From: Bacteroidales bacterium
GTDB lineage: Bacteria; Bacteroidota; Bacteroidia; Bacteroidales; VadinHA17
Assembly (NCBI GenBank): GCA_049975425.1
Contig: JBNGDI010000006.1
Span: 47,263 to 111,262, forward strand
Direction of reading: 5' to 3'
Length of the DNA: 64,000 nt
The notes below the pieces were generated by a model that worked only from the letters and a program-made list of their open reading frames with translations, was not told the DNA's origin and made no database searches. Shown piece by piece: positions 3,095-62,792 of this stretch. Position 1 is the stretch's first letter; the number at the start of each line of letters is the position of its first letter. Position numbers and translations under genes: made by a program.

Positions 3095-3556
3095 GTGGAG
3101 CGGCTAAATTTACCAACTTATTCCTTCAATATAAAATCAAAAGAAGGGAGGGATTACATCTTTGACCCCATAAGGAAGAAGTATGTGGTGCTGACTCCCG
3201 AGGAATGGGTGCGGCAGCATTTTGTCAGTTACATGATCAGGGAGAAAAATTATCCTGCCGCGCTCACCCGGGTAGAGATGTATCTGGAAGTTAACCGAAT
3301 GGGCAAACGGTGTGATGTTGTTTTTTTCGACAGAAAAGGTACTCCCCGGATGATTGTGGAATGCAAGGCCCCGGAAGTCAGGATCAGCCAGAAAACCTTT
3401 GACCAGGTAGCTGCTTATAATCTGAAATTAAAGGTAGATTACCTGGTGGTTACCAACGGATTGAAGCATTATGCCTGTGCCATGGATTACCGGACGAACA
3501 GCTATCATTTTCTGAAAGAAATACCCGATTATCATTCTCTTAAGACGAGGGATTGA
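3095..3556 (+). CDS. type I restriction enzyme HsdR N-terminal domain-like protein (stand-alone PD-(D/E)xK fold)
   Basis: 153 aa with a GTG start. Contains D(VVFF)...IVECK, a PD-(D/E)xK-like motif, and WVRQHF. No HsdM, HsdS or helicase gene is nearby. Confidence 0.6.
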   Translation: MERLNLPTYSFNIKSKEGRDYIFDPIRKKYVVLTPEEWVRQHFVSYMIREKNYPAALTRVEMYLEVNRMGKRCDVVFFDRKGTPRMIVECKAPEVRISQKTFDQVAAYNLKLKVDYLVVTNGLKHYACAMDYRTNSYHFLKEIPDYHSLKTRD

Positions 3557-4076
3557 TGCATTGCAGCATCCACTCGCCGGAAAAACCATTCCCATTGAAC
3601 AACCATTCTTTTTTTTCGCCGATAACGGTGAATCCGTTTCCGGTGAACAAACGCAGGCTGGCCTGGTTGTCAGTGGCGATATGGCAGTAAAGCTGATGGA
3701 GTTTCAGGTGCCCGAAACAGTATTCCTTGAACAATTGGAGAGCTTCGGAAGCATATCCCTTGTTCCGGTGGTTTTCGTTATGTATCAGAATGCCCACCCC
3801 GCCCCGCTTGTGGTAGGGGTCGAAATCGAACAGATCGATCGCTCCCAGCGGATGATTGTCATTCTTTCGAATGATCATCAGTCTGAATTGCCTGGTGGTA
3901 TACAGGTCGTTGGTGGATTGTTTGATGAACTGTTTCAGGGTAAATTTTGAAAAGGGGATGAGGGTCTGGCTTACCTTCCAGTGACGGGGATCATTTTCCC
4001 ACAGGTACAGTACTTCCAGGTCTTCGGGCTCCATGGCCCTGAGCCTGATTCGTTTATTTTCCAGAAGAGTATTCAT
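3540..4076 (-). CDS. GNAT family N-acetyltransferase (RimJ/RimL-like)
   Basis: 178 aa with an acetyl-CoA binding region (RNKGYASEAL) and a typical RimJ-like N-terminus (LRAMEPEDLE). Confidence 0.8.
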   Translation of the reverse strand: MNTLLENKRIRLRAMEPEDLEVLYLWENDPRHWKVSQTLIPFSKFTLKQFIKQSTNDLYTTRQFRLMIIRKNDNHPLGAIDLFDFDPYHKRGGVGILIHNENHRNKGYASEALQLFKEYCFGHLKLHQLYCHIATDNQASLRLFTGNGFTVIGEKKEWLFNGNGFSGEWMLQCINPSS

Positions 4077-4122: not shown

Positions 4123-6045
4123 TTATTCCGTATCCCGGTAAACCTTTTTCACCCATAGATCTTCATGATAGCCTTCATCAACCAGTTGCTGTCTTACTTT
4201 TTCCGCTTCTTCTATGGTGTCAAATTCGCCGTAGGTATACCGGTAAAAGCCGTCTTTTCCCAGAATGACCCGTACATTTTCAAGAGGGGCGAAATAGGAA
4301 ACATCCACCGGCCTGACTTTCAATGCCATTAACTGAATGGTATAATACAACACGTCCCTTTCCTGATCGATGGTTTCCAGGTCCTGGATGTCAAGGTCTG
4401 TAATGACCATTGCCGAATCGAGCGGCCTGGCCTGGCTGATATCGATGCTGTCTTTCAGCCACATTTGCCTGACGGGTTTTACGGAAGGTTCTGCAGGGGT
4501 CAGTTCCACATCAATAACAAATTCCGATTTTCTGGCATATTCATCGATCCGTATTTCTTCCTGGTGGGGAAGGTATCCGTTTCCGGTATAAATCAGGTAA
4601 TAATTGCCCGATTTGGTGATGAAAGAGTATTGTCCCGATTGCCGGTTCGGGAATCCCACATCAACCGTATCTGTCAATTCCCTGTCGATCATGATGATCT
4701 GAAAATCCCTGCCGAACTCCCGGGTGGTGTCTGCCAGTGACAATTGTCCCCTGATTGTGAAGTCACGGGTAGTTCCTGCAGGAAGTATCTCAATTCGGTA
4801 CAGGTTCATTTCCTTGTAACCGTCAAGCATGGAAATATAGGCGGCTTTGCCATTTTGCACCGGATTGAAAAACAGGTCATCGTCGGTTGTATTCAGGGGA
4901 TATCCTATATTCACGGGTTTGCTCCATGATCCATCAGGCATTCGCTGAGAGTAGAAAAAGTCGTATCCACCCATATTGTAATGGCCTTCCGAGGAAAAAT
5001 ACAGCAGTGAATCATTTTCTGTAATAAAGGGATAATTCTCATTGAAGGGGGTATTGATATTATTTCCTATATTTTCCGCAGGGCCCCAGTTACCGCGTTT
5101 GTCCTTTTTCGAGAAATATATGTCCAGTTCTCCCGTTCCCCCTGCCCGGTTGCTGGTAAAATACAGAGTATTCCCGTCGCTTGAGACACAGGCATGCGAT
5201 TCGTAATAACGGGTGTTGATGTTCCGGTTCAGCTTCCGGGCCCGGGTCCATTCTCCATCGTTTTTAAAGCTGACATAAATATTCCCGTCTTCCATATCGG
5301 ATTTATACAGATACAGTTCAGCTCCGTCAAATGACAAGGAGGAGGACGTTCCGTCCCGGTCTGAATGGACCTGCCGGGTGATATCTTCTGCCGAACTCCA
5401 TACCCCGCCGGTGGCACGGGTGGTTTGATAAAGGACATCCTCTTCCCCGTACTTGGCAGTAAATATCAGGGTATTTTCATTACCCGATATGGCCGGATGA
5501 ATATTCAGGGACACCACATTGACCTGGCTCCCCAGATTTTGGGGAATATAACTGACAGGATTCTTTTTCAGCTCTTTTGCTATTTCACATGCCCTGATCT
5601 GTTGGTTAATAAATTCATCATTTTCCATGGGATTGTTCTGCCTGATCAGTTCCCTGAAGTGCTGGTACGTGGCGATGGCTTTGTCGAGTTGATTGCTGAT
5701 CCTGTAGGCATTGCCCAGATAGAAATAAGCATCGAGCGGGGCACGGGTTTCGGCAGGAAGATGATCCCGGGCATCGTAAGAGGCATTTTTCACTGCTTTT
5801 TCGAGGTATGGAATGGCCTTTTCTTTTTCGTTGGGAATATGCAGGTAACATACCCCGATTTTGTACAGGATATTGGCGTTATCATCATCTTCCAGCAGAA
5901 GATAAAGCAATATGGCATCTTCATATTCCCGGTAAAGGTAATGTGATTCGGCTTCGACGAAAATCTCACGCATTTCAGACCTTGTCTGGCCTGTGATGTT
6001 ACCCGACAGAAATAAGCAGCACAGAATTATCAGGCTTTTATGCAT
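4123..6045 (-). CDS. envelope protein: signal peptide, TPR, PD40/TolB-like beta-propeller, CRD-like beta-sandwich, C-terminal SPOR domain (array member 5 of 5)
   Basis: Shares the array motifs YKIGVCYLHIPNEKEKAIPYLEKA, APLDAYFYLGNAYRISNQLDKA, IRACEIAK, LYFTSNRAGGTGELDIY, INTPFNENYPF...LYFSSEGHYNMGGYDFF and GYPLNTTDDD. The last 74 aa (YYTIQLMALK...FYRYTYGEFDTIEEAEKVRQQL) look like a SPOR domain. Confidence 0.75.
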   Translation of the reverse strand: MHKSLIILCCLFLSGNITGQTRSEMREIFVEAESHYLYREYEDAILLYLLLEDDDNANILYKIGVCYLHIPNEKEKAIPYLEKAVKNASYDARDHLPAETRAPLDAYFYLGNAYRISNQLDKAIATYQHFRELIRQNNPMENDEFINQQIRACEIAKELKKNPVSYIPQNLGSQVNVVSLNIHPAISGNENTLIFTAKYGEEDVLYQTTRATGGVWSSAEDITRQVHSDRDGTSSSLSFDGAELYLYKSDMEDGNIYVSFKNDGEWTRARKLNRNINTRYYESHACVSSDGNTLYFTSNRAGGTGELDIYFSKKDKRGNWGPAENIGNNINTPFNENYPFITENDSLLYFSSEGHYNMGGYDFFYSQRMPDGSWSKPVNIGYPLNTTDDDLFFNPVQNGKAAYISMLDGYKEMNLYRIEILPAGTTRDFTIRGQLSLADTTREFGRDFQIIMIDRELTDTVDVGFPNRQSGQYSFITKSGNYYLIYTGNGYLPHQEEIRIDEYARKSEFVIDVELTPAEPSVKPVRQMWLKDSIDISQARPLDSAMVITDLDIQDLETIDQERDVLYYTIQLMALKVRPVDVSYFAPLENVRVILGKDGFYRYTYGEFDTIEEAEKVRQQLVDEGYHEDLWVKKVYRDTE

Positions 6046-6083
6046 GAGGCAGGGGCTATTAACATACTGACAAATCTAAAAAT

Positions 6084-7553
6084 TCAATTGTGTTTTTCAA
6101 TAAGTACTTTCAGATTTTTGCTATTTGATTTGTAGTTAATTTTCTTTGAATCAGGATCAAAAAGAAATTCAGTCAGTATTTCTTCCGTATTTCGGTCGAT
6201 CAGTTTGATAATGAAGGGTGTTTCACAATTCCAGTCTGCATCCAGTTCTCCTGAAACAGGCATTGTGCCGGAGGTTTCTTCCGGGATAATTTCTATGCGG
6301 TAAATATCCTGTTGTCCGAACCCTTCCGGCATATTTCTGGAAAGATACACGAACTTCCCATTCCTTACGGGATAGAAAAAGGTTTCATCGGAAGTGGTAT
6401 TAACAGGGTATCCGATATTTATCGGATCTTGCCATTGCCCTGACGGGCCTCTGGTGGAATAAAAAATATCGTATCCCCCCATGTTGTAATGTCCCTCCGA
6501 TGAAAAATACAGTGTGTTCCCGTCTTCTGACAGATGTGGACTGGCCTCGTTGAAGGGGGTATTTATCACATCTCCCAGATTTTCCGGTTCCGACCATTGT
6601 CCGGACTGGTCAAGTACTGAGCGGTAAATGTCGAATTCGCCCATTCCTCCCCTCCGGTTACTTGAAAAATAAAGGGTTTTTTCATCGTCTGACAGGGAAG
6701 CAAAGGATTCAGCCCGGTTCGAATTAACCGGACCCGGAAAAGGTTCCATTCTGGACCAGGATCCGGCGCTATAAGTGCTGATGTAGATATCACGTTTATT
6801 CCCTGTGCCTTTTATGAGCAGCAATTTTTCCCCATTCGGTGAAATCCATACCGGGATGGCATCCCCGTCCGATTCCACCTGGGGGGTAATATTAACGGGT
6901 TCAGTCCAGATGCCGGCCAGTTTTTTACTCATGAAGAGGGCATTATAGAACTTTAAATCAGTCATGTATACCAGCGTCTGTTCATTGGAAGATATAACTG
7001 GTTGGTAATTGTCAGAGGCATCATTGACAGGCGACCCCAGGTTTACGATGTTCACATTCAGGGGAATATCCTTTATGATTTTTGCTATTTCGCAGGCACG
7101 GATTTCGTTCTCCACGATACGGATATTGTAATTCCTGTCAAAGCCCGGAACTTCCCTGAAAGCATAAAAAGCTTCCAGGGCTTTTTCCAGTTCGTTGTTG
7201 ATCCTGTATGCCCTGCCCAGGTAAAACCAGGTATGGTAGGGGGCTTTTGTTTCTTTTGTGGATCTTGCCGAGTATTTTCCTGTAAGATTCTCGATTGCTT
7301 TCTCAAAATAGGGGATGGCTTTGTGTTCTTCTCCGGGAATGTGCAGATAACACATTCCGATCCTGAAATGCACATTGGCATTGAAATAGGGTGTATCTTC
7401 TAGCCGCAGCAGATAATAGATAGCTTCTTCATAATCTTCTTCCTGGAAAAAGAAGAACCCGTTATCAAGCAATTCTTCCGGGCTCTGATCAACCTGTGCC
7501 ATGGCAGGAGTGCAGAATAACAGTAAACTAAAAAGAAAAAAGACGTTTCTCAT
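6084..7553 (-). CDS. envelope protein: signal peptide, TPR, PD40/TolB-like beta-propeller, short beta-rich tail with no recognisable anchor domain (array member 4 of 5)
   Basis: Start moved to the internal Met (MRNVFFLFSLLLFCTPAMAQ signal peptide; cat at 7551-7553). Motifs FRIGMCYLHIPGEEHKAIPYFEKA, APYHTWFYLGRAYRINNELEKA, IRACEIAK, LYFSSNRRGGMGEFDIY, INTPFNEASPH...LYFSSEGHYNMGGYDIF and GYPVNTTSDE. Confidence 0.75.
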   Translation of the reverse strand: MRNVFFLFSLLLFCTPAMAQVDQSPEELLDNGFFFFQEEDYEEAIYYLLRLEDTPYFNANVHFRIGMCYLHIPGEEHKAIPYFEKAIENLTGKYSARSTKETKAPYHTWFYLGRAYRINNELEKALEAFYAFREVPGFDRNYNIRIVENEIRACEIAKIIKDIPLNVNIVNLGSPVNDASDNYQPVISSNEQTLVYMTDLKFYNALFMSKKLAGIWTEPVNITPQVESDGDAIPVWISPNGEKLLLIKGTGNKRDIYISTYSAGSWSRMEPFPGPVNSNRAESFASLSDDEKTLYFSSNRRGGMGEFDIYRSVLDQSGQWSEPENLGDVINTPFNEASPHLSEDGNTLYFSSEGHYNMGGYDIFYSTRGPSGQWQDPINIGYPVNTTSDETFFYPVRNGKFVYLSRNMPEGFGQQDIYRIEIIPEETSGTMPVSGELDADWNCETPFIIKLIDRNTEEILTEFLFDPDSKKINYKSNSKNLKVLIEKHN

Positions 7554-7673
7554 TTGAAGTAATTTTAGCCAGCCACTTGAACAGAAAAGAAAGATAATAA
7601 AAAAAACTTGTATTACGAACCCTGATAAACACAGATTGGGGTGCACTGATCAGCCCGGCGGGAATATTGTTAC

Positions 7674-9638
7674 CTAAACGACAGGTTTTTCCGTTTGAAT
7701 AAAGGGGTATTTATTTTCCGGAACGGCAAAATCCACTCTTCGGTTGAATTTCCTTCCTTCCGGGTTGTCCGATCCGTCGGGCAGGTGGTTTGGAGCAATG
7801 GGGCAGCTTTCTCCGAGCGCCCTGATTACCAGTCTGTTTTGCGGAACACCCTGCTTTACCAGGTAGTTTTTAACCGACTGTGCCCGGCGTTCCGACAGGC
7901 GTAAATTGTAACCTTCCGTACCAATGGCATCGGTATGGCCCCGGATTTCAATTTTTAAATCTGGAAATTGTTCCAGTATTGTGGCCAGCTCTCTGAGGGC
8001 GCTTTCCGATGAAGGGAGCGGATCAGATCTGTCGAAACCGAAATAAATATTTCTGAGTGTAACGATTTCGCTGATTTTTTTCCTGGCGGAAATACTGAGG
8101 GAATGGCTGTCTTCCCTGTCGGTGATATGAAACCGTTGAGTTAATGTTTCTAAACTGCTGTCCTGCAGGGTCACTTCATATATGCCCGGGGGGAGGGGGA
8201 ATTTAAAATGGCCTGTACTATCCGTTGTTACCAGAAGGGTGTCACCTTTTTCCACGCTGGTCAGTGTCAGGGTGGTTTCAAGCGGGGAAACCCTGCCGGT
8301 GTGGCCGGTAACATTTACATTCCCTGAAACCATAACCTGAGCAGGTTGAATTGCCCGGGGCGGCATGAACCATGCTAACTGGCTCGTTCCGGGTTCTTTG
8401 TGCCTTGTCAGAATAAAATCAGCATCACCGGGGGCAGGAGAGAAGGCCCGGTCGTTCAGGGTTGAATTGACAGGATACCCGGGGTTTTGCGGAACCGTCC
8501 ATGTATTTCCGGATCTGACGGAACGGACAATATCAAGCCCGCCCATGGTTACATGCCCATCGGAAGCAAAAAAAAGAGTATCGGGATGCTTCACGTAAGG
8601 CGAGGTTTCGTCGTAGGGTGTGTTGATCTGATTATCCAGCAATTGCAGGCCGGTAACCGCAAATTCTTCATTCAGCTGCGCTGCGTACAGATCCAATCCT
8701 CCGTATCCCCCCGGTCTGTCGCTGGAGAAATACAGGGTGTTTTCGTCATCTGTCAGGAATGCGGCAGTTTCATTCCACCGTGTATTCACCCCCTCGAGAG
8801 GTCTGGCAGGTCTCCAGCGCCCCTCTTTATACCTGGAATAATACAGGTCGTACTGCTCATCCTGTTTTCTGGACAGGAAAAGCACCTTTCCGTTTCCTGA
8901 AAGGGATACACATTCAAAATAACCGTCAGATTCAATGGAAGCAGTGATGTTCCGGGGTTCATACCAGCGGCCGTTGTATTTTTCCGAAAGCATCACAGCC
9001 CGGTAATAATCCTTCCGTTGCATAAATGCCAGTGCCGAACCATCGGGCGCCAGACAGGGATTATAAACATAGATGCCGGTATTGATTACGGGGACTTCAA
9101 CAGGAGGTTCAGAAACCGGAGCAGAAAAAAATCTTTTTGCGGTTTCACACATTATTATCTGTCGTTCGGCTTCCTTTGATTCTGGATCACCCTGTCCGAA
9201 CCATTTCCGGTATCTGGCAAAATGTTCCAGGGCGGCATCGAGATCTCCGTTAATCCTGCAGGCTATCCCCAGATACAGAAATGTCTCGCGCGGTGCTGAC
9301 ATTTCTCTGTGGGAGTCATCCCTGTAACGTTTTTTTACACGGTTTGTAGCCTTTTCAAGATAAGGAACGGCCAGGGATTCGTAACCCGGAATGTGTAGGA
9401 GGCACATCCCGGTTTTATAATTCAGGTTGGAATTATCGGGATACTTCTCAACCAGCCCGGTAAAATAGGGTAAGGCCATTTCATATTCTTCGTAGAGGTA
9501 ATGAAAATTCCCATCATAGAAGGTTTTCTGGTAATCCTTACCTGACTGTGCTGTTGCAAATGACCAGGCAAGGAGGAGGATGACTCCGGTCATTTTCAAC
9601 CCGGGTGCTTTTTTAAACATTTCTTTGCAACAGTTCAT
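7674..9638 (-). CDS. PorE-like envelope protein: signal peptide, TPR, PD40 beta-propeller, CRD-like domain, OmpA_C peptidoglycan-binding domain (array member 3 of 5)
   Basis: Motifs YKTGMCLLHIPGYESLAVPYLEKA, APRETFLYLGIACRINGDLDAA, LYFSSDRPGGYGGLDLY and GYPVNS. CRD-like segment GHFKFPLPPGIYEV. C-terminal OmpA_C: IYFGFDRSD...IRGHTDAIGTEGYNLRLSERRAQSV. The start may be the Met at 9620. Confidence 0.8.
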   Translation of the reverse strand: MNCCKEMFKKAPGLKMTGVILLLAWSFATAQSGKDYQKTFYDGNFHYLYEEYEMALPYFTGLVEKYPDNSNLNYKTGMCLLHIPGYESLAVPYLEKATNRVKKRYRDDSHREMSAPRETFLYLGIACRINGDLDAALEHFARYRKWFGQGDPESKEAERQIIMCETAKRFFSAPVSEPPVEVPVINTGIYVYNPCLAPDGSALAFMQRKDYYRAVMLSEKYNGRWYEPRNITASIESDGYFECVSLSGNGKVLFLSRKQDEQYDLYYSRYKEGRWRPARPLEGVNTRWNETAAFLTDDENTLYFSSDRPGGYGGLDLYAAQLNEEFAVTGLQLLDNQINTPYDETSPYVKHPDTLFFASDGHVTMGGLDIVRSVRSGNTWTVPQNPGYPVNSTLNDRAFSPAPGDADFILTRHKEPGTSQLAWFMPPRAIQPAQVMVSGNVNVTGHTGRVSPLETTLTLTSVEKGDTLLVTTDSTGHFKFPLPPGIYEVTLQDSSLETLTQRFHITDREDSHSLSISARKKISEIVTLRNIYFGFDRSDPLPSSESALRELATILEQFPDLKIEIRGHTDAIGTEGYNLRLSERRAQSVKNYLVKQGVPQNRLVIRALGESCPIAPNHLPDGSDNPEGRKFNRRVDFAVPENKYPFIQTEKPVV

Positions 9639-9645
9639 GGATATG

Positions 9646-11628
9646 TTACCGGATTTTGATATCGTCCGGCATTTCGAACCGTTCGTATTCCACGATCAGA
9701 TCACCTGATTCAGGAACATGAATTTCTGCCCTTCTGTTCAGGGCCCGTCCCTCGGGACAATCGGCACCGTTTTCGTACCGGTTTCGGGCTATCGGGTTGT
9801 TTTCACCTTTTCCCGATACGCTGATCCTTGTTTTCCCAATTCCTTTTGATATGAGGTAATCACGTACGGCACCTGCACGGCGTTCGGAAAGTTTCTGATT
9901 GTATTCAGCCGGACCAATGGCATCGGTATGGCCGATAATTTCAATATTCAATCCGTTGTGTTCCTCCAGGATTTTTACCAGTTTGTCAAGTTTAGCCTTT
10001 TCTTCTGCGGTGATGGTTGCCCTGTCAAAAGCGAAATAGACATGTTTCAGGGTAATGATTTCGGGGGGAACCGCAACCAGTGTGGCGTTTACCATTACTT
10101 CCGAAAGAGAATAATCGGATGGAAGATGAGCTTCCCTGACAAGGGGTTCGTAACCTTCACACGTGAATGTGAGTGCATAGGTGCCAGGCACCTTGCTGGT
10201 GTAGTGATATTCGCCGGTTGAAGGATCGACCGGCAGGGTTGAGGGCTGAGTACCTGAGGGGCCGGATATATTAACCTTTATGTCTGTTACTTCCGGTACA
10301 GTTTTATCCTCAAGGGTTACTTTTCCGGTAATCAGTACGGGTCTTGGGTTTTTATCAGAATAAATCTCATATCGGTAAATGTCTTCCTGCCCGTAACCAT
10401 CTTCGGTATATCTGGCAAAGTAGGCGTTTATACCGTCATTCACAGGCATGAAGAAAAGGTCCTCGTCGGAGGTATTAATGGGATAACCCAGGTTGACCGG
10501 TGTGCTCCAGTTCCCGTCATCGTCAAGGGAGGAAGTAAAAACATCGTAACCTCCCATGGTTTCGTGCCCCTGGGAACTGAAATAAATGGTTTTTCCGTTA
10601 TTCACCATGAAAGGGGTTTCTTCATTGAAAGGGGTATTGATTGCCGGCCCCATATTTTCAGCGGGGCCCCAGTCGCCGATGGTTTCATCCCAGCGGGAAA
10701 GATAAAGGTCAAAACCGCCGTATCCTCCGGGTTTGTTGCTGGTAAAAATCAGAACGGACCCGTCCTCGGAAACGCAGGCATGGTTTTCCCAGTATTTGGT
10801 GTTGACATTCTTCCCGATTTTTTCTGCGGGTTGCCATTCTCCGTCTATTTTCCGGCTGAGGTAAATGTCGCTGTTGAAATCATCGTCTTTGGAAAGAAAC
10901 AATTGGTTCCCGTCTGATGAAAGGCATGTAGGATACATGTCTCCGTCTGAAAGGATTTCCGGGCTGAGATTGACCGGATCGCTCCACCGGGTGCCAGATT
11001 TTTCGGTATAAAATATCGCATCATAGAATTTCAGGCCGGTAACGAATATCAGTGTTTCTTCATCGGGTGTGGTAACCGGTTTGAAATTTGGAAACTGATC
11101 ATTTATGGGTGGACCCAGATTAGCTGCATCGAAAGGGACGGGATTTTTCATATATTCTCTGGCGTTCTCGCATGCATTGATCTGCTGGAGGATAAAATTG
11201 CGATTAATGGTATCTCCGTTTTCTATTAATGCCAGATACTGGTCAAAAATCTGACAGGCTTCATCAAAGCGTTCCTGTATTCGGTAGGCGGCTCCCAGAT
11301 AATAATAGGCTTCCAGGGGTGCTCTGTCTTCCCTGTGATTCCCTTCCCTGTAAGTGGTTGTGGTATTTTTTACCGCTTTTTCTAGATAGGGAATGGCTTT
11401 CTCTTTTTGTCCCGGCAGATTGATATAACACATGCCGATGCGGTAACAGATATTGGCATTATCGGGATCTATTTCATAAAGTTCAAGAAAAAAGGGGAGG
11501 GCATCGGCATATTCTTCGTATAGCAAGAAATAATCCCCGTCAAGGAAGGTTTCCTTGAAATTGACTTCCTGTGCGAATGTGGTGGAAAATAATAGACAGG
11601 AAAACAGAAATACCAGAGCTTTTTTCAT
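9646..11628 (-). CDS. PorE-like envelope protein: signal peptide, TPR, PD40 beta-propeller, CRD-like domain, OmpA_C peptidoglycan-binding domain (array member 2 of 5)
   Basis: Motifs YRIGMCYINLPGQKEKAIPYLEKA, APLEAYYYLGAAYRIQERFDEA, INACENAR, LIFTSNKPGGYGGFDLY, INTPFNEETPF...IYFSSQGHETMGGYDVF and GYPINTSDED. OmpA_C: VYFAFDRATI...IIGHTDAIGPAEYNQKLSERRAGAV. Only 7 nt separate it from the next gene. Confidence 0.8.
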   Translation of the reverse strand: MKKALVFLFSCLLFSTTFAQEVNFKETFLDGDYFLLYEEYADALPFFLELYEIDPDNANICYRIGMCYINLPGQKEKAIPYLEKAVKNTTTTYREGNHREDRAPLEAYYYLGAAYRIQERFDEACQIFDQYLALIENGDTINRNFILQQINACENAREYMKNPVPFDAANLGPPINDQFPNFKPVTTPDEETLIFVTGLKFYDAIFYTEKSGTRWSDPVNLSPEILSDGDMYPTCLSSDGNQLFLSKDDDFNSDIYLSRKIDGEWQPAEKIGKNVNTKYWENHACVSEDGSVLIFTSNKPGGYGGFDLYLSRWDETIGDWGPAENMGPAINTPFNEETPFMVNNGKTIYFSSQGHETMGGYDVFTSSLDDDGNWSTPVNLGYPINTSDEDLFFMPVNDGINAYFARYTEDGYGQEDIYRYEIYSDKNPRPVLITGKVTLEDKTVPEVTDIKVNISGPSGTQPSTLPVDPSTGEYHYTSKVPGTYALTFTCEGYEPLVREAHLPSDYSLSEVMVNATLVAVPPEIITLKHVYFAFDRATITAEEKAKLDKLVKILEEHNGLNIEIIGHTDAIGPAEYNQKLSERRAGAVRDYLISKGIGKTRISVSGKGENNPIARNRYENGADCPEGRALNRRAEIHVPESGDLIVEYERFEMPDDIKIR

Positions 11629-11676
11629 GGGCCTTGGGATTTGAAACCAAACAAATTTAATAATTTAATTCACATG

Positions 11677-11719
11677 AGGAAAGAAATGAAGGGATTGTTC
11701 ATTTGACCAATCCCTTCAT
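11677..11719 (-). terminator. putative rho-independent terminator after the 944-aa array gene
   Basis: 12-bp perfect stem ATGAAGGGATTG / CAATCCCTTCAT (11686-11697 and 11708-11719), followed on the minus strand by TTCTTTCC. Confidence 0.55.
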
Positions 11720-11745
11720 GAAGTCATTCAGTCCGGCAGACCTTT

Positions 11746-14580
11746 TTATCCCCGGAGGTCATGGTTTTCTCTGTTTTTTTTCTTTCTTCTGGTCAGAATA
11801 AGGAACAGAACAAGCAGGAACAATATACTGCCGCCAGTAAGCCATACGATCCATGATCGGCCCGGCACCTTTTCTTCTGAGAGTATTTCAATTACCTCAT
11901 CGGCCAGCTCGCTGTGTTTATCCATCAGTTTGAAGAGGAGGTCCCAAACCTGGTTGGCAGTATACGGATAATTAACCGACTGCTGCAATACATATTCCAG
12001 TAATTGCTCCGGTGTCATTTTCCGGACCATTTCATAGTCAAGGCCTGAGAGGAAATCTTTCAAAGCTCCTTCCGATGAATTTGTCAGGCTTTCAAGGAAT
12101 GCCAGTACATCTATTTTTCCCCCTGAAGCCAGGGCGGACACCAGCCTGAAGACTTCTTCCTTCTCGTATCCGAAGAATTCGGCTTTTCCTATGAGGTATT
12201 CCACGAGTTCCTGGTTGTTTGTAATCCCTTCGCGGTCAGGTTCAAGCTGTTCAATGGATGATTTCAGTGTACCTTCGGCCATCTCCTCCATTTTGCCCAT
12301 CAGTTCCCTGACTTTTTGTTCCTCTGCGGCTGGTGAGATCATCAGGATCCTGCGTATATCTTTGTCGCTGAATGCATAGTTTTCCGAGAGGGCATTCAGG
12401 TGTTCGATGAGTCGGAATGAGGTGCTGTCAGTCCATATGACACTGTCGATACGGCTGACTACCTCTTTCATTTCACCAAGGGCATGCCGGTTCAGTTTTT
12501 CCAATATGCCGGTGGTAGTCAGGGAAGCCACCTGGTCGCGGTACCTGAAAAGAGTATCGACCTCAGCCGGCTGGTTGCTTTCATTTACCAGGTACTTCCG
12601 CAGATCATTGATAGAATATAATTTCGATTGCTGAGGATCAGTATTTTCAATCATACTTCTCCATTCCTTCCCGGAAATGTCTTTCAGTTCTTCCATAGCG
12701 CTCAACACTTCGGCGGGAACCGGTTTGACTTTAGTGCGCGGAGGTTCGTAAGTAACCTCCGTTTCTTTTATGGTACGGTTACCGGCCTGATCTGTCAATG
12801 TAAAACGCAAAATGGTCTCACCTTGCAGGGGGTCGAATGTATACCGGGTTTCCGTTTTTCTGATATTGAACTCTTCACGGTTCACTACCACACTGTCCCT
12901 GATGGTTTCCACAAGCAGTGTGGCATTCTTTTCAGTGGCCAGATCAATTCTGACTTTCCCTTTTGTAATGTAAACGGTCGTATCAGAGACTTCAAGTTCG
13001 GCAATCAGATCGGCTTCTTCAAGGGTTTTGTTCAGGGTAAAGGAATCCCTGCGTTCAAAAGGCTCAATCATCAGCCGGTCTGTGGCAGGAATGAAACGGT
13101 CTGCCTCAAAAACTACATGATAATTGCCCTGAACCAGGTTGGTTTGATAACGCCCCGATGTATCGGTTTTAACCACAGAAGCCGTATCGCCGGTTTCCGT
13201 GTTGATGAAACAAACCTTAACGGCTTCTGGCCGATAGCCCTGTGTGGTTCTCAGTCCAACCATTCCGCTGATAAGGTATTTCTTCGGATGTTCATCGGAA
13301 TATATTTCGAGTTCAAAAATATCCTGTTCACCGAAACCCTCTTCGCTGTACATGGCGTAATAGACAAGGTATCCCTCACCAATGGGATAGTAGAAAAGAT
13401 TGTCGTCAGGGGTGTTTACCGGGTATCCCATGTTCATTGGAGCCGACCAGGTGCTGTCGCTCAACAGGTTGGAATAAAAAATATCATACCCTCCGATATT
13501 GAAATGGCCGTAGGAGCTGAAATAGAGAGTTTTGCCGTCATGGGATATAAACGGGGCATCTTCATTATACGGAGTATTGATTTTGTTTCCCAGGTTAACG
13601 GGAGGCCCCCATTCACCGCCCACACTGTCGCGTGTGGAAACATAGATATCCAGGTCCCCGTAACCCCCTTTCCGGTTGCTGGTAAAATACAGGGTTTTTC
13701 TGTCGGCTGATATGGAGGCATGTGATTCCCAGTATTTTGTGTTGATATGGTCGTTCAGTCTCTTAATGCGTGACCATTCCTTACCGTCATAATAACTAAC
13801 GTAAATATTCCCGTCGTAACCATCAACTTTGTACAGGTACAGTTCTTTTCCGTCAGCAGAAAGAGAACTGGTATAGAGGTCATCGTCTTCTCCCAGCTGG
13901 AATGTGAGGTTTTCCGGTTCGGTCCATTTTCCGTCCACTTTTTTTGAGAAGAAAACGGCATCATAGAACTGAAGTTTCCGCATGAAAACCATCATGGTCC
14001 TGTCCGCCGACACAACGGGATTGTAGTCGGAAAACCTGGAATTGATCACTTCGCCCATGTTTCTCATATCCAGAAACATAGGATTTTGCATGATCTTTTT
14101 GGCATTTTCACAGGCACGGATCTGTTCATCCACAAGATCCAGGTCATACTTTTTTTCGTCCACAGAATTTTTGAATTGCCGGTATGCTTCCAGTGCTTCG
14201 TCAAGATTGTTGTTTACACGGTAGGCATCGCCCAGGCGGAACAGGGCCTCGGGCGGCGCATTATTTTCCCTGATATTTTCTCCCCTGTATTTATCCGAAG
14301 TGTGCCGGGAAGCTCTTTCCAGGTAGTCAATTGCTTTGTCTTTCTGCCCGGGGGTATTCAGATAACATACTCCGATACGGTACCTGATATTATGGTTGTT
14401 GGGGAATTCCCGCAACATCTGAAGGTAAATGGGGAGTGCCTCGTTGTATTCTTCGTACAGAAAATAAGCATTGGCTTCTTTAAACCGTTCTCTCCAGTCA
14501 ATGCCTTCCTGAGAAGAACCGTTATACGTGAAAAGCAGTGATACAAGAATGATCAGGAGTGTATACCGCTTCATGGGCAA
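11746..14580 (-). CDS. envelope protein: signal peptide, TPR, PD40 beta-propeller, CRD-like and extra beta-rich domain, ~285-aa helical-repeat module, C-terminal TM anchor (array member 1 of 5)
   Basis: Motifs YRIGVCYLNTPGQKDKAIDYLERA, APPEALFRLGDAYRVNNNLDEA, IRACENAK, LYFTSNRKGGYGDLDIY, INTPYNEDAPF...LYFSSYGHFNIGGYDIF and GYPVNTPDDN. CRD-like GRYQTNLVQGNYHVVF. The C-terminus is WIVWLTGGSILFLLVLFLILT followed by RRKKKNREN. Confidence 0.75.
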   Translation of the reverse strand: MPMKRYTLLIILVSLLFTYNGSSQEGIDWRERFKEANAYFLYEEYNEALPIYLQMLREFPNNHNIRYRIGVCYLNTPGQKDKAIDYLERASRHTSDKYRGENIRENNAPPEALFRLGDAYRVNNNLDEALEAYRQFKNSVDEKKYDLDLVDEQIRACENAKKIMQNPMFLDMRNMGEVINSRFSDYNPVVSADRTMMVFMRKLQFYDAVFFSKKVDGKWTEPENLTFQLGEDDDLYTSSLSADGKELYLYKVDGYDGNIYVSYYDGKEWSRIKRLNDHINTKYWESHASISADRKTLYFTSNRKGGYGDLDIYVSTRDSVGGEWGPPVNLGNKINTPYNEDAPFISHDGKTLYFSSYGHFNIGGYDIFYSNLLSDSTWSAPMNMGYPVNTPDDNLFYYPIGEGYLVYYAMYSEEGFGEQDIFELEIYSDEHPKKYLISGMVGLRTTQGYRPEAVKVCFINTETGDTASVVKTDTSGRYQTNLVQGNYHVVFEADRFIPATDRLMIEPFERRDSFTLNKTLEEADLIAELEVSDTTVYITKGKVRIDLATEKNATLLVETIRDSVVVNREEFNIRKTETRYTFDPLQGETILRFTLTDQAGNRTIKETEVTYEPPRTKVKPVPAEVLSAMEELKDISGKEWRSMIENTDPQQSKLYSINDLRKYLVNESNQPAEVDTLFRYRDQVASLTTTGILEKLNRHALGEMKEVVSRIDSVIWTDSTSFRLIEHLNALSENYAFSDKDIRRILMISPAAEEQKVRELMGKMEEMAEGTLKSSIEQLEPDREGITNNQELVEYLIGKAEFFGYEKEEVFRLVSALASGGKIDVLAFLESLTNSSEGALKDFLSGLDYEMVRKMTPEQLLEYVLQQSVNYPYTANQVWDLLFKLMDKHSELADEVIEILSEEKVPGRSWIVWLTGGSILFLLVLFLILTRRKKKNRENHDLRG

Positions 14581-14780: not shown

Positions 14781-16172
14781 TCACACTACCCTGTCGGTGT
14801 CGAAATTTTCAAGATATTCCGCCACTTTTTTGAGGTACATGCCGCCCAGTGCTCCGTCAACCACCCGGTGATCATAGGAAAGAGAAAGGATCATGATGTG
14901 TCTGATCCCGATGGCATCGCCTGCCGGGGTTTCAATAACGGCGGGTTTCTTCCTGATGGCTCCGATTCCCAGAATGGCGGCCTGCGGCTGATTGATGATA
15001 GGAGTTCCTGTGAGGCTGTCAAAAGTGCCGAAATTGGTGATGGTAAAAGTACCTCCGGTGATCTCATCAGGTTTCAGCTGGTTGCTGCGGGCCCTTCTGG
15101 CCAGATCATTTACCGTTTTTGCCAGCCCTATGAGATTTTTTTCATCAGCATTTTTGATCACCGGCACAATCAGGTTCCCATTGGGCAGGGCCGTGGCCAT
15201 TCCGATATGGATGTTTTTCTTTTTTATGATACGGTCGCTGTCCACCGAAACGTTAACCATGGGATAATCACGCAGGGCAAGAGCTGCTGCCTCAATGAAC
15301 ACGGGCATGAATGTGAATTTTTGGCCTTCGCGCTGCAGGAAAGTATCCTTTACCCGGTTCCTCCATTCAACCACTGCTGTCATATTTACTTCTATAAAGG
15401 ACGTAACATGAGGAGAAATCTGCTTGGAACGAACCATATGTTCAGCAATAAGCTTTCTCATACGGTCCATCTGAATGATTTCATCCTCACCTGAAGATGC
15501 CGTTACGGCACCGGCTGCGGCCTGCTGCTTCAGGTCCGGTTTCCGGGCAGTTGTTTCATTTGCAGCCTGTTCTGGCTGTTTCACCTTTCTGGTTTTTCTC
15601 TGTTCCAGATACTGCAATATGTCGTTTTTCGTAAGCCGGTTATTTAATCCTGTGCCCTGAATGCTGTCCAGTTCATCGGCGCTGAGGTTCTCTTTTTCCG
15701 CAATACGACGGATAAGAGGTGAGAGAAATCTTCCCGATGGGGTATGACTTGTTTGTTCCGGGGGAAGAGGGACCTCCTCAGCTTCAGCAGCCTTTTCCAA
15801 CGGCTTTTCCTGTACCGGAGATTCTTTTTCCTCTGATTCAGGCTCTGGTTCTGTTTTCTTTCCGGAAGGAGTGCTTTTGATCCTTTCCACCTCTTTCCTG
15901 ACTTCTTCCGTAGCGGAACTTTCCATTTCCTTTTCGGTTTCCAGTCGCGCAATGGCCTGCCCTACCTGAGGGGTTTCACCTTCTTTGACCAGAATCTCCT
16001 TTACTATGCCGGAGTATGGGGAAGGGACCTCCGAGTCAACTTTGTCTGTGGCAATTTCAACCAGCGAATCGTCTTCATTCACATGGTCACCTTCCTTAAC
16101 CAGCCATTTGGTTATGGTTGCTTCAATTACTCCTTCTCCCATGGCAGGGAGCATTATTTCTACTTGAGCCAT
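14781..16172 (-). CDS. 2-oxoacid dehydrogenase complex E2 component (dihydrolipoamide acyltransferase)
   Basis: N-terminal lipoyl domain with the EIATDKV lysine motif. Then an Ala/Pro/Glu-rich linker, a peripheral subunit-binding domain (LSPLIRRIAEKENL) and a catalytic domain with DHRVVDG. Confidence 0.9.
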   Translation of the reverse strand: MAQVEIMLPAMGEGVIEATITKWLVKEGDHVNEDDSLVEIATDKVDSEVPSPYSGIVKEILVKEGETPQVGQAIARLETEKEMESSATEEVRKEVERIKSTPSGKKTEPEPESEEKESPVQEKPLEKAAEAEEVPLPPEQTSHTPSGRFLSPLIRRIAEKENLSADELDSIQGTGLNNRLTKNDILQYLEQRKTRKVKQPEQAANETTARKPDLKQQAAAGAVTASSGEDEIIQMDRMRKLIAEHMVRSKQISPHVTSFIEVNMTAVVEWRNRVKDTFLQREGQKFTFMPVFIEAAALALRDYPMVNVSVDSDRIIKKKNIHIGMATALPNGNLIVPVIKNADEKNLIGLAKTVNDLARRARSNQLKPDEITGGTFTITNFGTFDSLTGTPIINQPQAAILGIGAIRKKPAVIETPAGDAIGIRHIMILSLSYDHRVVDGALGGMYLKKVAEYLENFDTDRVV

Positions 16173-16267: not shown

Positions 16268-18220
16268 TTACCTGTCCAAATGTTTACGGGCCTTCCAAAT
16301 AATTTTCATATCCGTGACCGGGCTGTAGTCTCTGGCGTAAACAAGATTCCCTCTATTGATCACTTCTTTATGTTCCGTACCGGGGGGCAGGGTATACAAT
16401 ATCCCCGGCCGGATATCAGGAAGTGACTGATCCTCTGTGTTGTGAAGAGGATAAAATCCTACCCAGCTGCATTTTCCCAATAGAACAAGGAAAATATTCC
16501 TGAGCAGTCGGAGCGGTTTGGGGAAAAGGAAAAATGTAATCGGGAAACAAACCAGTAGCAGGACGGAAAGTGTCATATCCAGCAACCGTTTGTTCCTTCT
16601 GGAAGAGGCCTGTGTAATGGTATTGAAATGGAGCAGGAAGAGTTCCCCCGGGGTATGGATGGAGTGATTGCCAATGACCGACGCACTTTCGGGAGGGGCT
16701 ATTTTATATTCCACCGGAAACCGGTTCAGCCGGTTCATGCAATGAATGATTGTACCGGCAGGGATATCCCGGGCACAGAAAATTACTTCGCAGGCCTGGT
16801 GGACCCTGATCATCTCTTCCAGGTCGGCTGCCAGATATGATGCATCAGAAGAACCGTTAGGGGGTGAAGCTATACCGGCCAGTTCACAGGATGTTCCGGA
16901 AAGATTCATCAGCTCGTAAACCCTCCGGGCTTCTTCTTCGCTTCCGGCAATAAGTATTCTTTTCTTTCTGTCACCGGCCAGCCTGAACTGTGTCCATGGC
17001 ATCCAGTGCATTCCCAGCCTGAAAATCAGAAGAGTTCCCAGGGTCCAACCACTTCCGGCCAGGATCAGCATGCGGGAAAACCTGAAATGTTCCGGGAGAA
17101 GGGCATAGATTATCAGGATTGTGACGGTTCCGGCCAACCAGCCTGCTGTTATACGCGAAAGGCGTACGGGCGGGTCGTATCCTCCGGCCAGGAGAAGGCT
17201 GATCAGCCAGATCATGATCATGCCCGGGATCAGAAACAGGTAAAAACCATCAGGATAACTGCCTCCTTCAGGGAATCGGATCTTTTCCCACAGCGGGGTC
17301 AGTATCAGGAAACCGGACAGAATCAGCAGGGCATCTACTGCCGGGAACAGGATCCTCTTAACAAAACGCCTTAGGATTGAAAACCCTGCACGGCAATATA
17401 TGGCTCCTTTGATCAGAAAGGAAAGCAGTCGGGCATGAGTGGATGTCAGGTGCTTTTCTGCGAAGGTCAACATGGCCCGGTAGAACAGAATCACATACTG
17501 AATGCTTGATTTTTTTGTGCTTTCGCCCTTGTAATGTATGATAGAGGTCTCGGGAAAGTATATTACCTGGTGACCTGCCTGCAGTATCCGGTACGAAAAA
17601 TCAATATCTTCCCCGTACATAAAATAGTCCTCATCCAGCAATCCTACTTTGTCCAGCACCGTTTTTCTGATCATCATAAAGGCGCCGGTAAGGACTTCAA
17701 TATCAGCTGTTTCAAATTCGTTGAGGTGTCCCAGATAATATTTGCCCAGGGTTTTAGATCTCGGAAACAGCCGGGTAAGTCCGGATAATTTGAAGAATGC
17801 CACCGAAGGTGTGGGCAGGGCTCTTTTTGATTCGGGTAAATATCTTCCTTTTCCGTCTACCATTCTAACGCCGAGTGCCCCTGCATCAGGATGTTGATCA
17901 AGGTATCCTATGCATTTTTCCAGCGTATGTTCCCCAACCACGGTATCAGGATTCAGGAGAAGCACATATTCGCCTGATGAATGCCGGATGCCCTGATTAC
18001 AGGCATGAGAATACCCTGTGTTGACCTTGTTTTCAATGAGAATGACCCGGGGGAATTTTTCCCTGACCATCCGGCAGGAACCGTCCACCGAATGATTGTC
18101 AACTACAATGATTTCTGTTTGTATTTTCCCGGCTGCTTTCTGAACAGAATGCAGACATTGTTCCAGGAAGAACCTGACGTTGTAATTGACAATGACAACG
18201 GATAGCTTCATCGGGATCAA
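16268..18220 (-). CDS. GT2 glycosyltransferase fused to a polytopic membrane region, a Rossmann-like segment and a degenerate sugar-transferase-like C-terminus
   Basis: N-terminus LSVVIVNYN...VVDNHSVDGS...LLLNPDT...YGEDIDFSYR is GT2. About 6 hydrophobic segments follow. KKRILIAGSEEEARRV is a Rossmann-like segment. The C-terminus KRLLDMTLSVLLLVCFPITFF...LLGKCSWVGFYP resembles the ends of a Bac_transf domain without the middle. Confidence 0.65.
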   Translation of the reverse strand: MIPMKLSVVIVNYNVRFFLEQCLHSVQKAAGKIQTEIIVVDNHSVDGSCRMVREKFPRVILIENKVNTGYSHACNQGIRHSSGEYVLLLNPDTVVGEHTLEKCIGYLDQHPDAGALGVRMVDGKGRYLPESKRALPTPSVAFFKLSGLTRLFPRSKTLGKYYLGHLNEFETADIEVLTGAFMMIRKTVLDKVGLLDEDYFMYGEDIDFSYRILQAGHQVIYFPETSIIHYKGESTKKSSIQYVILFYRAMLTFAEKHLTSTHARLLSFLIKGAIYCRAGFSILRRFVKRILFPAVDALLILSGFLILTPLWEKIRFPEGGSYPDGFYLFLIPGMIMIWLISLLLAGGYDPPVRLSRITAGWLAGTVTILIIYALLPEHFRFSRMLILAGSGWTLGTLLIFRLGMHWMPWTQFRLAGDRKKRILIAGSEEEARRVYELMNLSGTSCELAGIASPPNGSSDASYLAADLEEMIRVHQACEVIFCARDIPAGTIIHCMNRLNRFPVEYKIAPPESASVIGNHSIHTPGELFLLHFNTITQASSRRNKRLLDMTLSVLLLVCFPITFFLFPKPLRLLRNIFLVLLGKCSWVGFYPLHNTEDQSLPDIRPGILYTLPPGTEHKEVINRGNLVYARDYSPVTDMKIIWKARKHLDR

Positions 18221-38027: not shown

Positions 38028-38060
38028 GGGTTGTTTTAGAAAAACCTGCTGATAAAAATG

Positions 38061-38091
38061 CTTGTGATGTGCTCCGCATCATGTAACTTTG
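38061..38091 (+). promoter_or_regulatory. candidate Bacteroidetes-type promoter for hutU
   Basis: Exact -7 element TAACTTTG (38084-38091), 30 nt before the ATG. A partial -33 element cTTG at 38061-38064 lies 19 nt upstream. Confidence 0.35.
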
Positions 38092-38120
38092 ATGCAAAGA
38101 ACTGTTCAAAAACCATTCCA

Positions 38121-40983: not shown

Positions 40984-41472
40984 TCAGGATGCCTCTTTCC
41001 TGATCAGAACCGTAGCATAGGCGGCAATACCTTCTTCCCGGCCTATAAATCCAAGTCTTTCCGTGGTGGTGGCCTTGATGGAAATGCGGTCTTCTTCCAG
41101 ACCTATCACTGAAGCCAGAACCTTTTTCATCTGGGGGATGAATTCCATGATCTTGGGGGCCTGCAGGCAGATAACGGTATCGATGTTCCCTACTTCGAAC
41201 CCTTTTTTCCTGATAAGCCGCAGGGTTTCACGTAGCAGGATCTTGCTGTCAATCCCGCTGTATTTTGGCGATTTGTCGGGGAAATGCACCCCGATATCCC
41301 GCAGGTTGGCTGCTCCCAGCAGGGCATCGCAAATGGCATGAATGAGGGCATCCCCGTCGGAATGCCCCACCGTTCCTTTATGATGGGGTATGATCAACCC
41401 ACCGATACACAGGTTGGCATGTTCCCCCAGGGGATGTACATCGTGACCGAACCCAACGCGTATATCTGTCAT
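40984..41472 (-). CDS. ispF: 2-C-methyl-D-erythritol 2,4-cyclodiphosphate synthase
   Basis: GFGHDVH, GHSDGDALIHAICDALLGA and KATTTERLGF. Overlaps the porV stop by 4 nt. Confidence 0.93.
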   Translation of the reverse strand: MTDIRVGFGHDVHPLGEHANLCIGGLIIPHHKGTVGHSDGDALIHAICDALLGAANLRDIGVHFPDKSPKYSGIDSKILLRETLRLIRKKGFEVGNIDTVICLQAPKIMEFIPQMKKVLASVIGLEEDRISIKATTTERLGFIGREEGIAAYATVLIRKEAS

Positions 41473-42674: not shown

Positions 42675-42722
42675 ATTATATTTCTCTAGAATTGAAGTGA
42701 ACAAATATATAAATAATATAAC

Positions 42723-62711: not shown

Positions 62712-62786
62712 GGGAGCTTAGCTCAGTTGGTTCAGAGCACCTGCCTTACAAGCAGGGGGTCACTGGTTCGAATCCAGTAGCTCCCA
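62712..62786 (+). tRNA. tRNA-Val (anticodon UAC)
   Basis: Cloverleaf read by eye. Acceptor stem GGGAGCT/AGCTCCC, D-arm GCTC-AGTTGGTTC-AGAGC, anticodon stem CCTGC/GCAGG with loop CTTACAA (anticodon TAC), T-arm CTGGTTCGAATCCAG, discriminator A. CCA is encoded at 62787-62789. Confidence 0.9.
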
Positions 62787-62792
62787 CCACGC

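Follow-up and report, generated by a model that had tools for sequence, protein, structure and literature searches.

The 64,000-nucleotide stretch of DNA analysed here (hereafter the window; contig JBNGDI010000006.1 of assembly GCA_049975425.1, from a Bacteroidales bacterium) carries on its minus strand five adjacent genes that encode related periplasmic proteins, numbered 1 to 5 in the order of transcription (Table 1). The five open reading frames (ORFs) appear in the ORF list exactly where a preliminary description, made from the sequence alone, had placed them, and the modules of this array recur in no other ORF of the 64-kb window. Gene 1, hereafter the long form, can be read from a TTG or from an ATG codon, and its identical NCBI entry, which comes from a metagenome-assembled genome (MAG), is named 'MAG: tetratricopeptide repeat protein [Bacteroidales bacterium]'. 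For gene 4, the ATG at 7553 is taken as the start because it gives a normal signal peptide and agrees with the lengths of the orthologs (485-498 aa).

Table 1. Positions of the array genes, their modules and other genes of the window. TPR, tetratricopeptide repeat; CRD, carboxypeptidase regulatory-like domain; AF2, AlphaFold2; HMM, hidden Markov model.
Feature	Position	Strand	Description
Gene 1 (long form), ORF	11746-14580	-	944 aa with TTG start at 14580
Gene 1 from ATG	11746..14574	-	942 aa; start used in the 100%-identical NCBI MAG protein
Gene 1 TPR block	14089..14496	-	residues 27-162; Pfam TPR families and AF2 helices
Gene 1 PD40 beta-propeller	13300..14076	-	residues 167-425; PD40 E 9e-23
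Gene 1 beta-sandwich 1, CarboxypepD_reg-like	13015..13281	-	residues 432-520; Pfam 26.4 bits against a cutoff of 32.3; AF2 strands
Gene 1 beta-sandwich 2	12748..12996	-	residues 527-609; AF2 strands; specific to the long form, conserved in orthologs
Gene 1 helical-repeat stalk	11875..12714	-	four units of about 56-66 aa: residues 630-676, 693-745, 761-816, 830-883 (repeat HMM)
Gene 1 C-terminal transmembrane helix and RRKKK tail	11749..11856	-	residues 907-942; AF2 helix 907-941
Terminator-like hairpin 3' of gene 1	11686..11719	-	12-bp stem, then UUUCUUUCC (U-rich); centroid -18.9 kcal/mol, z -2.2
Gene 2	9646-11628	-	660 aa: signal peptide, TPR, propeller, CRD, OmpA_C; OmpA-1 orthogroup
Gene 2 OmpA_C	9769..10038	-	Pfam OmpA E 9.6e-25; motif GHTDAIGPAEYNQKLSERRA
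Gene 3	7674-9638	-	654 aa; architecture as gene 2; OmpA-2 orthogroup
Gene 3 OmpA_C	7773-8045	-	residues 532-622
Gene 4, ORF	6084-7646	-	
Gene 4 from ATG	6084..7553	-	489 aa: signal peptide, TPR, propeller, truncated CRD-like half-sandwich
Gene 5	4123-6045	-	640 aa: signal peptide, TPR, propeller, beta-sandwich region, linker, probable SPOR
Gene 5 probable SPOR	4144..4347	-	about residues 567-634; PF05036 21.8 bits, gathering score 21
GNAT (Acetyltransf_3) gene	3540..4076	-	start 46 nt past gene 5; conserved downstream neighbour
porV	41469-42704	-	ispF directly downstream
porU	42723-46556	-	1372 bits
PorP/SprF-family gene	46672-47691	+	
gldJ	47767-49257	+	450.8 against 458.2 for the long model; short model passed

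By aligning the five proteins, a common scaffold is revealed. The products of genes 2-5 are 30-39% identical to that of gene 1 over a core of approximately 430 residues, and more than 70 columns are invariant in all five; the motifs on which the preliminary description had based its shared scaffold are among these columns and confirm it. Pfam detects TPR and PD40 in all five proteins, the latter with E values from 1e-11 to 9e-23, and the TPR, PD40, OmpA and SPOR profiles each match where the corresponding module had been predicted, the SPOR match being borderline. The top Protein Data Bank (PDB) matches of the gene 1 propeller in Foldseek are TolB structures (2w8b_B, E 2e-9, approximately 258 columns), and the propeller can for this reason justifiably be called TolB-like, as had been proposed. 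The signal peptides of all five proteins end in xAQ or xSQ, with an invariant Gln at position +1. A lipobox-like N-terminus occurs in 6 of the 268 array proteins across loci, none of them in the window. The lack of a lipobox together with a cleavable Sec-type signal peptide indicates that all five are periplasmic proteins and not lipoproteins. Pfam and NCBIfam searches of the five proteins yielded no catalytic domain. The TPR block of gene 1 also contains two cysteines, Cys70 (14365-14367) and Cys155 (14110-14112), in the motifs 'IG.CY' and 'I..CE.A'; both are conserved in all five paralogs and in nearly all of the 54 long-form homologs, and a disulfide could link them in the periplasm.

The AF2 model of gene 1, built on 54 homologs with a mean predicted local distance difference test (pLDDT) score of 83.6, shows a signal peptide, the TPR helices, the propeller, two sandwiches, a low-confidence linker, helices over residues 621-900 and a long final helix (907-941). 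The second sandwich was absent from the preliminary description. The first corresponds to the carboxypeptidase-regulatory-like sandwich that had been assigned to every member of the array, and this assignment holds in part: the fold is present in the gene 1 model, whereas the Pfam CarboxypepD_reg match is below threshold in genes 1-3 and is undetected in genes 4 and 5.

Behind this shared head, the C-termini differ as had been reported, with helical repeats and a transmembrane helix in gene 1, OmpA_C in genes 2 and 3, no anchor in gene 4 and a marginal SPOR domain in gene 5. For OmpA (PF00691), gene 2 scores 87.2 bits and gene 3 scores 78.5 bits (E 5e-22), well above the gathering score of 27.2. 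Both OmpA_C domains retain the pattern GHTD...N..LS..RA with the Asp and Asn eight residues apart, and the Asp/Asn pair of peptidoglycan binding is found in GHTDAIGPAEYN of gene 2 and in GHTDAIGTEGYN of gene 3. In addition, the gene 2 domain matches the structure of the PorE C-terminal domain, 6TOP (PDB search, E 6e-15). In PorE, the equally spaced D576 and N584 bind peptidoglycan and are essential for the function of the protein (PMC12773672). Gene 4 contains no anchor module; it ends in a truncated half-sandwich, which is conserved in its orthologs.

The C-terminal domain of gene 5 is, judging from profile comparisons, a probable SPOR domain. The Pfam match spans residues 592-622 only, and Pfam matched SPOR in 6 of the 16 gene 5 orthologs. 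The C-terminal 70 residues or so are nevertheless the best-conserved part of these 16 orthologs, with Q571 invariant, and a profile built from it could be aligned over 66 columns to five SPOR domains used as references (hhalign probability 85%, E 6e-6), all of which were verified with Pfam (5/5). In other bacteria, the SPOR fold binds denuded glycan at division sites.

The long form departs most from its paralogs. Its sandwiches are followed by a helical-repeat stalk of four units with the consensus KLKELAEGNLKKFLESLDLEKEGIKTPEDLIDYLLENAEKGGYTEEDVDNLLLKLA, and then by the C-terminal helix; a hydrophobic stretch and a terminal RRKKK are found in 20 of 20 full-length long-form homologs. The combination of an N-terminal signal peptide and a C-terminal hydrophobic helix points to a bitopic protein whose body is periplasmic and whose short tail is cytoplasmic, and from the positive-inside rule we likewise infer a periplasmic N-terminus and a cytoplasmic C-terminus. 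Among the long forms of loci L001-L082, the copy number of the stalk repeat ranges from 1 to 12 according to the repeat HMM and tracks protein length, which ranges from approximately 700 to 1545 aa: one repeat is found in forms of approximately 700 aa, four in those of approximately 950 aa (gene 1 included), and 10-12 in those of 1360-1545 aa. In most lineages with one-repeat long forms (approximately 705 aa), the SPOR paralogs are also shortened (approximately 548 aa) and are without the sandwich region; L052, with a SPOR paralog of 645 aa, is an exception.

For the stalk itself, Pfam gave no match above threshold; its sub-threshold matches to EAD8 and CARD are not taken as a sign of a death-like fold. 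When the C-terminus alone was modelled with AF2 (pLDDT 85.3), Foldseek found no PDB fold match for the stalk (best E 1.5), and sequence searches of the PDB with the array proteins returned TPR and OmpA_C matches only, with none for the long-form C-terminus. A phmmer search of 1.84e9 representative proteins found the stalk region in only 117 clusters, which, judging from their lengths and from where the match lies, represent long forms or C-terminal fragments of them. These searches and the model suggest that the stalk repeat is a previously undescribed one.

The array is not confined to this genome. With one genome per GTDB species, long-form relatives were found in at least 587 species-level genomes, and the best 80 of these loci were inspected; all 80 belong to uncultured Bacteroidales or Bacteroidota MAGs, and the identity is approximately 35-50%. 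The loci were annotated with HMMs from the window's own domains and with first-ATG ORF calls, and some of the 'short' calls are consequently fragments. In 61 of the 62 complete loci, the long form leads and same-strand paralogs follow it, with a median gap of 57 nt. The most frequent order is long, short, SPOR, OmpA+SPOR (16 loci), followed by long, short, SPOR (15 loci), long, OmpA, short (8 loci), long, OmpA, OmpA, short, SPOR (6 loci; the order of the window) and long, OmpA, OmpA, short (5 loci). This synteny survey thus shows a widespread array, of which the identical five-gene order represents one version. The flanks are also syntenic across genomes (alaS, acyl-CoA ligases, recR, GT2, E2 acyltransferase, GNAT, PNP, holA and rhomboid), which indicates that the array is part of the core genome and not an island.

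In a tree of 134 core sequences (simple neighbor-joining without support values), the long, SPOR, OmpA+SPOR, OmpA-1, OmpA-2 and short proteins form one clade each. This implies that the duplications predate these lineages and that members are orthologous by position. In a comparison of the orthogroups, identity is 43-57% within types and 35-44% between types, with 42 universally conserved core positions and, under a strict criterion, no sharp clade-specific positions. When the window was compared with its relative L083, which is approximately 90% identical, the five genes were found to have the same lengths and ratios of nonsynonymous to synonymous substitution (dN/dS) of 0.12-0.24, similar to the 0.05-0.18 of flanking genes. 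All five genes are under purifying selection, and in this comparison none of them shows the decay that the preliminary description had named as a ground for refutation.

On the other hand, the anchors are, by comparison of the loci, the evolving part of the array, as seen in double anchors, in stalks of 1-12 repeats and in one chimera. The chimera lies in L004 (JAUXED010000012.1, MAG Bacteroidota CSMAG_2868), which has a six-member array. Over residues 1-540, its gene 4 (16281-18167) shares 83-88% identity with the neighbouring OmpA-1 paralog (gene 2 of that array), whereas its C-terminal 90 residues form a SPOR domain with 67.5% identity to the one in gene 6 of the same array. From these identities, this gene is a recent duplication with recombinational anchor exchange, and the module swapping proposed in the preliminary description is real in this OmpA-to-SPOR case. 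OmpA+SPOR paralogs of 835-930 aa, with both anchors in one protein, occur in other lineages (L019-L054 and others; for example L023:16239-19025) and likewise point to anchor exchange.

With regard to transcription, the preliminary description had predicted a terminator after gene 1, and a terminator-like hairpin with a 12-bp stem is indeed present there. A consensus scan for terminators and promoters gave counts at shuffle level and missed this hairpin, consistent with the 3-8 nt loop limit of the scan; Rfam and tRNA scans gave no match within the array. Genes 2-5 and the downstream GNAT gene are closely spaced. This arrangement suggests that gene 1 could be regulated partly separately. No hairpin is evident between gene 5 and the GNAT gene, and a GNAT homolog lies downstream of the array in 54 of the 80 loci; the GNAT gene may be co-transcribed with the array, and its membership in the system is uncertain.

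Two characterised relatives help to place the array. The first, PorE (PG1058 of Porphyromonas gingivalis), is a lipoprotein of the outer membrane (PMC12773672, PMC7192894); its order of TPR, PD40/WD40 propeller, CRD and OmpA_C is shared by genes 2 and 3 and not by genes 1, 4 and 5, which are without OmpA_C. All five proteins are detectable homologs of PorE (E 1e-38 to 3e-75). With the PorE model NF052230, genes 1-5 score 131.9, 253.6, 196.4, 135.1 and 156.2 bits, against a cutoff of 600, and the Cys of the PorE lipobox has no counterpart in any of them. The PorE architecture attributed to the array therefore applies to the domain order of genes 2 and 3, whereas no gene reaches the NCBIfam cutoffs and the lipobox is missing. 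CHU_0125 of Cytophaga hutchinsonii, an OmpA-like outer-membrane integrity protein, has the same TPR, PD40 and OmpA_C modules, and the similarity of the array to it is about equal to that to PorE (NF053607: 171.6, 223.4, 207.1, 159.6 and 147.0 bits for genes 1-5, cutoff 620). By these scores, the five are ancient paralogs of the PorE/CHU_0125 superfamily and not PorE proper. Deletion of CHU_0125 impairs outer-membrane integrity and increases outer-membrane vesicles 6-fold (PMC5891637), and this leakiness and vesiculation represent the kind of function proposed below for the array. CHU_0125 was studied as a single gene, and no inner-membrane-anchored or SPOR variants of it were described. Unlike PorE, the array is a conserved multi-paralog operon led by an inner-membrane-anchored form. 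The WD40 domain of PorE is implicated in PorP binding, and PorE needs its peptidoglycan-binding residues; gliding bacteria have multiple copies of PorE and PorP, and their PorE homologs are mostly non-lipoproteins (PMC12773672).

Comparison with the Tol-Pal system of Proteobacteria is informative at the level of modules. TolA combines a TolQR-coupled transmembrane helix at its N-terminus with a long domain II and, at the C-terminus, a domain III. Gene 1 is likewise inner-membrane-anchored and extended; as a TolA it was rejected, given its C-terminal helix, the lack of detectable homology, of a PDB fold match and of adjacent TolQR-like motor genes. The helical-repeat module with its membrane anchor was thus borne out, whereas the likeness to TolA was not. 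The propeller of the array is structurally closest to TolB, whose N-terminal domain is absent here and replaced by TPR; the TolB model TIGR02800 gives 15-20 bits over the propeller only, against a cutoff of 343. The OmpA_C domains are Pal-like (TIGR02802, E 4e-20), with 72.0 bits in gene 2 and 68.5 bits in gene 3 against a cutoff of 125 and no lipobox. The TPR block resembles that of CpoB in a generic way, and with the CpoB/YbgF model TIGR02795 (cutoff 90) gene 5 alone matches (14.4 bits, E 0.042). The idea that Tol-Pal-type parts are recombined in this array holds for the TolB-like propeller and the Pal-like OmpA_C, without detectable homology to TolA, and in their defining features the five proteins fall short of TolB, Pal, CpoB and TolA alike; moreover, the idea was already published for PorE in 2025, when PorE was proposed to be a compact, fused analogue of CpoB, TolB and Pal that may traffic to the septum (PMC12204202). 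The parts that are separate in Tol-Pal are fused in single polypeptides here, and the array has no lipid anchors. The septal connection of Tol-Pal would have its counterpart in the probable SPOR member of the array. The C-terminal domain of gene 5, of about 70 aa, can be aligned from end to end with the reference SPOR domains, including the Gln of the first strand; it is highly divergent, and it is carried on a TPR-propeller head and not on a transmembrane or lytic transglycosylase module as in the SPOR division proteins FtsN, DamX, DedD and RlpA.

Taken together, these results lead us to favour, with moderate confidence, a core-genome operon of five ancient paralogs that act as non-redundant envelope tethers. 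Gene 1 would be fixed in the inner membrane, its two Ig-like sandwiches and four-repeat stalk spacing the head from the membrane. The OmpA_C domains of genes 2 and 3 are predicted to bind the stem peptides of peptidoglycan, the SPOR domain of gene 5 is a predicted binder of denuded glycan, and gene 4 would be unanchored. TolB binds Pal, and by analogy with this pair and with the PorE WD40 domain and PorP, the partners of the heads would be sought at the outer membrane or just beneath it. The set would tether or organise the outer membrane, the wall and the inner membrane, the septum included, and would contribute to envelope integrity. The fixed gene order, the ancient orthogroups and the purifying selection argue that the five are non-redundant components that probably work together, and a tethering or organising role fits both the leakage and hypervesiculation of the CHU_0125 mutant (PMC5891637) and the septal proposal for the fused PorE (PMC12204202). 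Several points weigh against this explanation. Attachment to the outer membrane is not evident, there being no lipid anchor, and the link to that membrane rests wholly on analogy. In Pfam, the SPOR match of gene 5 lies at the borderline, and a profile search with this domain retrieved no SPOR entry from the PDB sequences. The hairpin 3' of gene 1 may uncouple that gene transcriptionally from genes 2-5. No cultured host is found among the best 80 loci. In addition, in L084 (18525-20421; JGI 3300033141), another assembly of the relative that is approximately 90% identical, the SPOR gene lacks 26 nt that are present in the intact gene of L083, and this deletion splits it into parts of 309 and 283 aa; the split may reflect an error of assembly or else a loss, as a pseudogene, at the level of the strain.

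A different role, as accessory proteins of type IX secretion (the T9SS) or of gliding, is a possibility to which we give a clear minority share of belief. The five would then be PorE-like adaptors that dock different PorP/SprF-family proteins or the PorK/N ring onto peptidoglycan or the inner membrane, and gene 2 or gene 3 would be the PorE of this lineage. All five proteins match the PorE HMM, gene 2 best at 253.6 bits, PorU, PorV, a PorP/SprF-family protein and GldJ are encoded by the organism, and the binding of PorP by the PorE WD40 domain and the multiple PorE and PorP copies of gliders (PMC12773672) are in line with such docking. The scores are nevertheless far under the cutoff of 600 and about equal to those for the CHU_0125 family, none of the five is a lipoprotein, and the SPOR anchor and the inner-membrane stalk are without counterpart in the described T9SS parts. 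The preliminary description had pointed to T9SS genes near the array. These are present 27-33 kb away, which is not evidence of linkage, and the synteny of the array is with housekeeping genes; as the T9SS genes lie outside its conserved neighbourhood, their proximity adds little and was rejected as functional evidence.

The preliminary description itself had inferred interchangeable periplasm-spanning tethers, with one common ligand-binding propeller held at the inner membrane, at bulk peptidoglycan or at septal peptidoglycan; on this view, the five would be largely redundant. The shared scaffold with its 42 universally conserved core positions, the exchange of anchors between members in L004 and the differing array composition between lineages all speak for it. 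However, the types represent old orthogroups that have each been conserved on their own, the gene order is fixed, identity between types (35-44%) falls below that within types (43-57%), and purifying selection acts on all five, whereas loss or homogenisation would be expected of redundant copies. Interchangeability is thus not favoured, and we consider it unlikely. Propellers of the PD40 type also gate S9 peptidases and tricorn-type proteases, and prolyl oligopeptidase-type propellers are among the weaker Foldseek matches, so that periplasmic substrate-handling or hydrolase-associated proteins unrelated to envelope tethering were considered as well; with no catalytic domain detected in the five proteins, anchoring domains as their C-terminal modules and TolB as the best structural match, this explanation is very improbable.

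The tethering interpretation can be extended to a trans-envelope system, specific to Bacteroidales, that would take the place of Tol-Pal and need neither a lipoprotein nor a known motor, a proposal that we put forward tentatively and regard as rather doubtful. The stalked paralog of the inner membrane would reach up through the wall, its number of repeats (1-12) tuned to the geometry of the periplasm, and would meet the OmpA_C- and SPOR-anchored paralogs through the TolB-like heads. The set would thereby fix the envelope spacing and drive or follow the constriction of the outer membrane at division.

Part of this picture has already been published, namely the domain architecture of PorE, the reading of PorE in terms of Tol-Pal parts (PMC12204202) and the finding that gliding Bacteroidota have several PorE homologs, most of them non-lipoproteins (PMC12773672), the latter two in 2025. 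The literature searched contained no account of a conserved operon or of a functional assignment for the array, no inner-membrane-anchored long form with a variable helical-repeat stalk, no SPOR or OmpA+SPOR variants and no anchor-swap chimera. The statement that a five-member array of this kind had not been characterised therefore holds insofar as no functional assignment was found, while the array itself proves widespread. The operon defines a widespread uncharacterised family (at least 587 species-level genomes), for whose helical repeat neither a Pfam family nor a PDB fold was matched, and it bears on how Bacteroidota hold the outer membrane to the wall and constrict it at division. It provides natural variants in which a PorE-like protein has a septal-wall SPOR domain in place of its wall anchor or is held at the inner membrane by a stalk that varies in length, as well as the double-anchored OmpA+SPOR forms and the recent anchor-exchange chimera of one genome. 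Its main value is that the hypothesis that PorE-like proteins replace Tol-Pal becomes testable.

Around the array, a 2-oxoacid dehydrogenase E2 gene (14781-16172, minus strand) lies between the GT2 gene and the array, and the same is seen in 43 loci; in L001, the E2 gene is missing at that position and GT2 is immediately upstream of the long form. Elsewhere in the window, a urocanate-hydratase-like ORF (38058-40136, plus strand, 692 aa) has a HutU match that begins at residue 111, and its N-terminal extension may reflect the choice of an upstream start codon. A tRNA-Val (TAC) at 62712-62789 on the plus strand is the sole RNA family match in the window.

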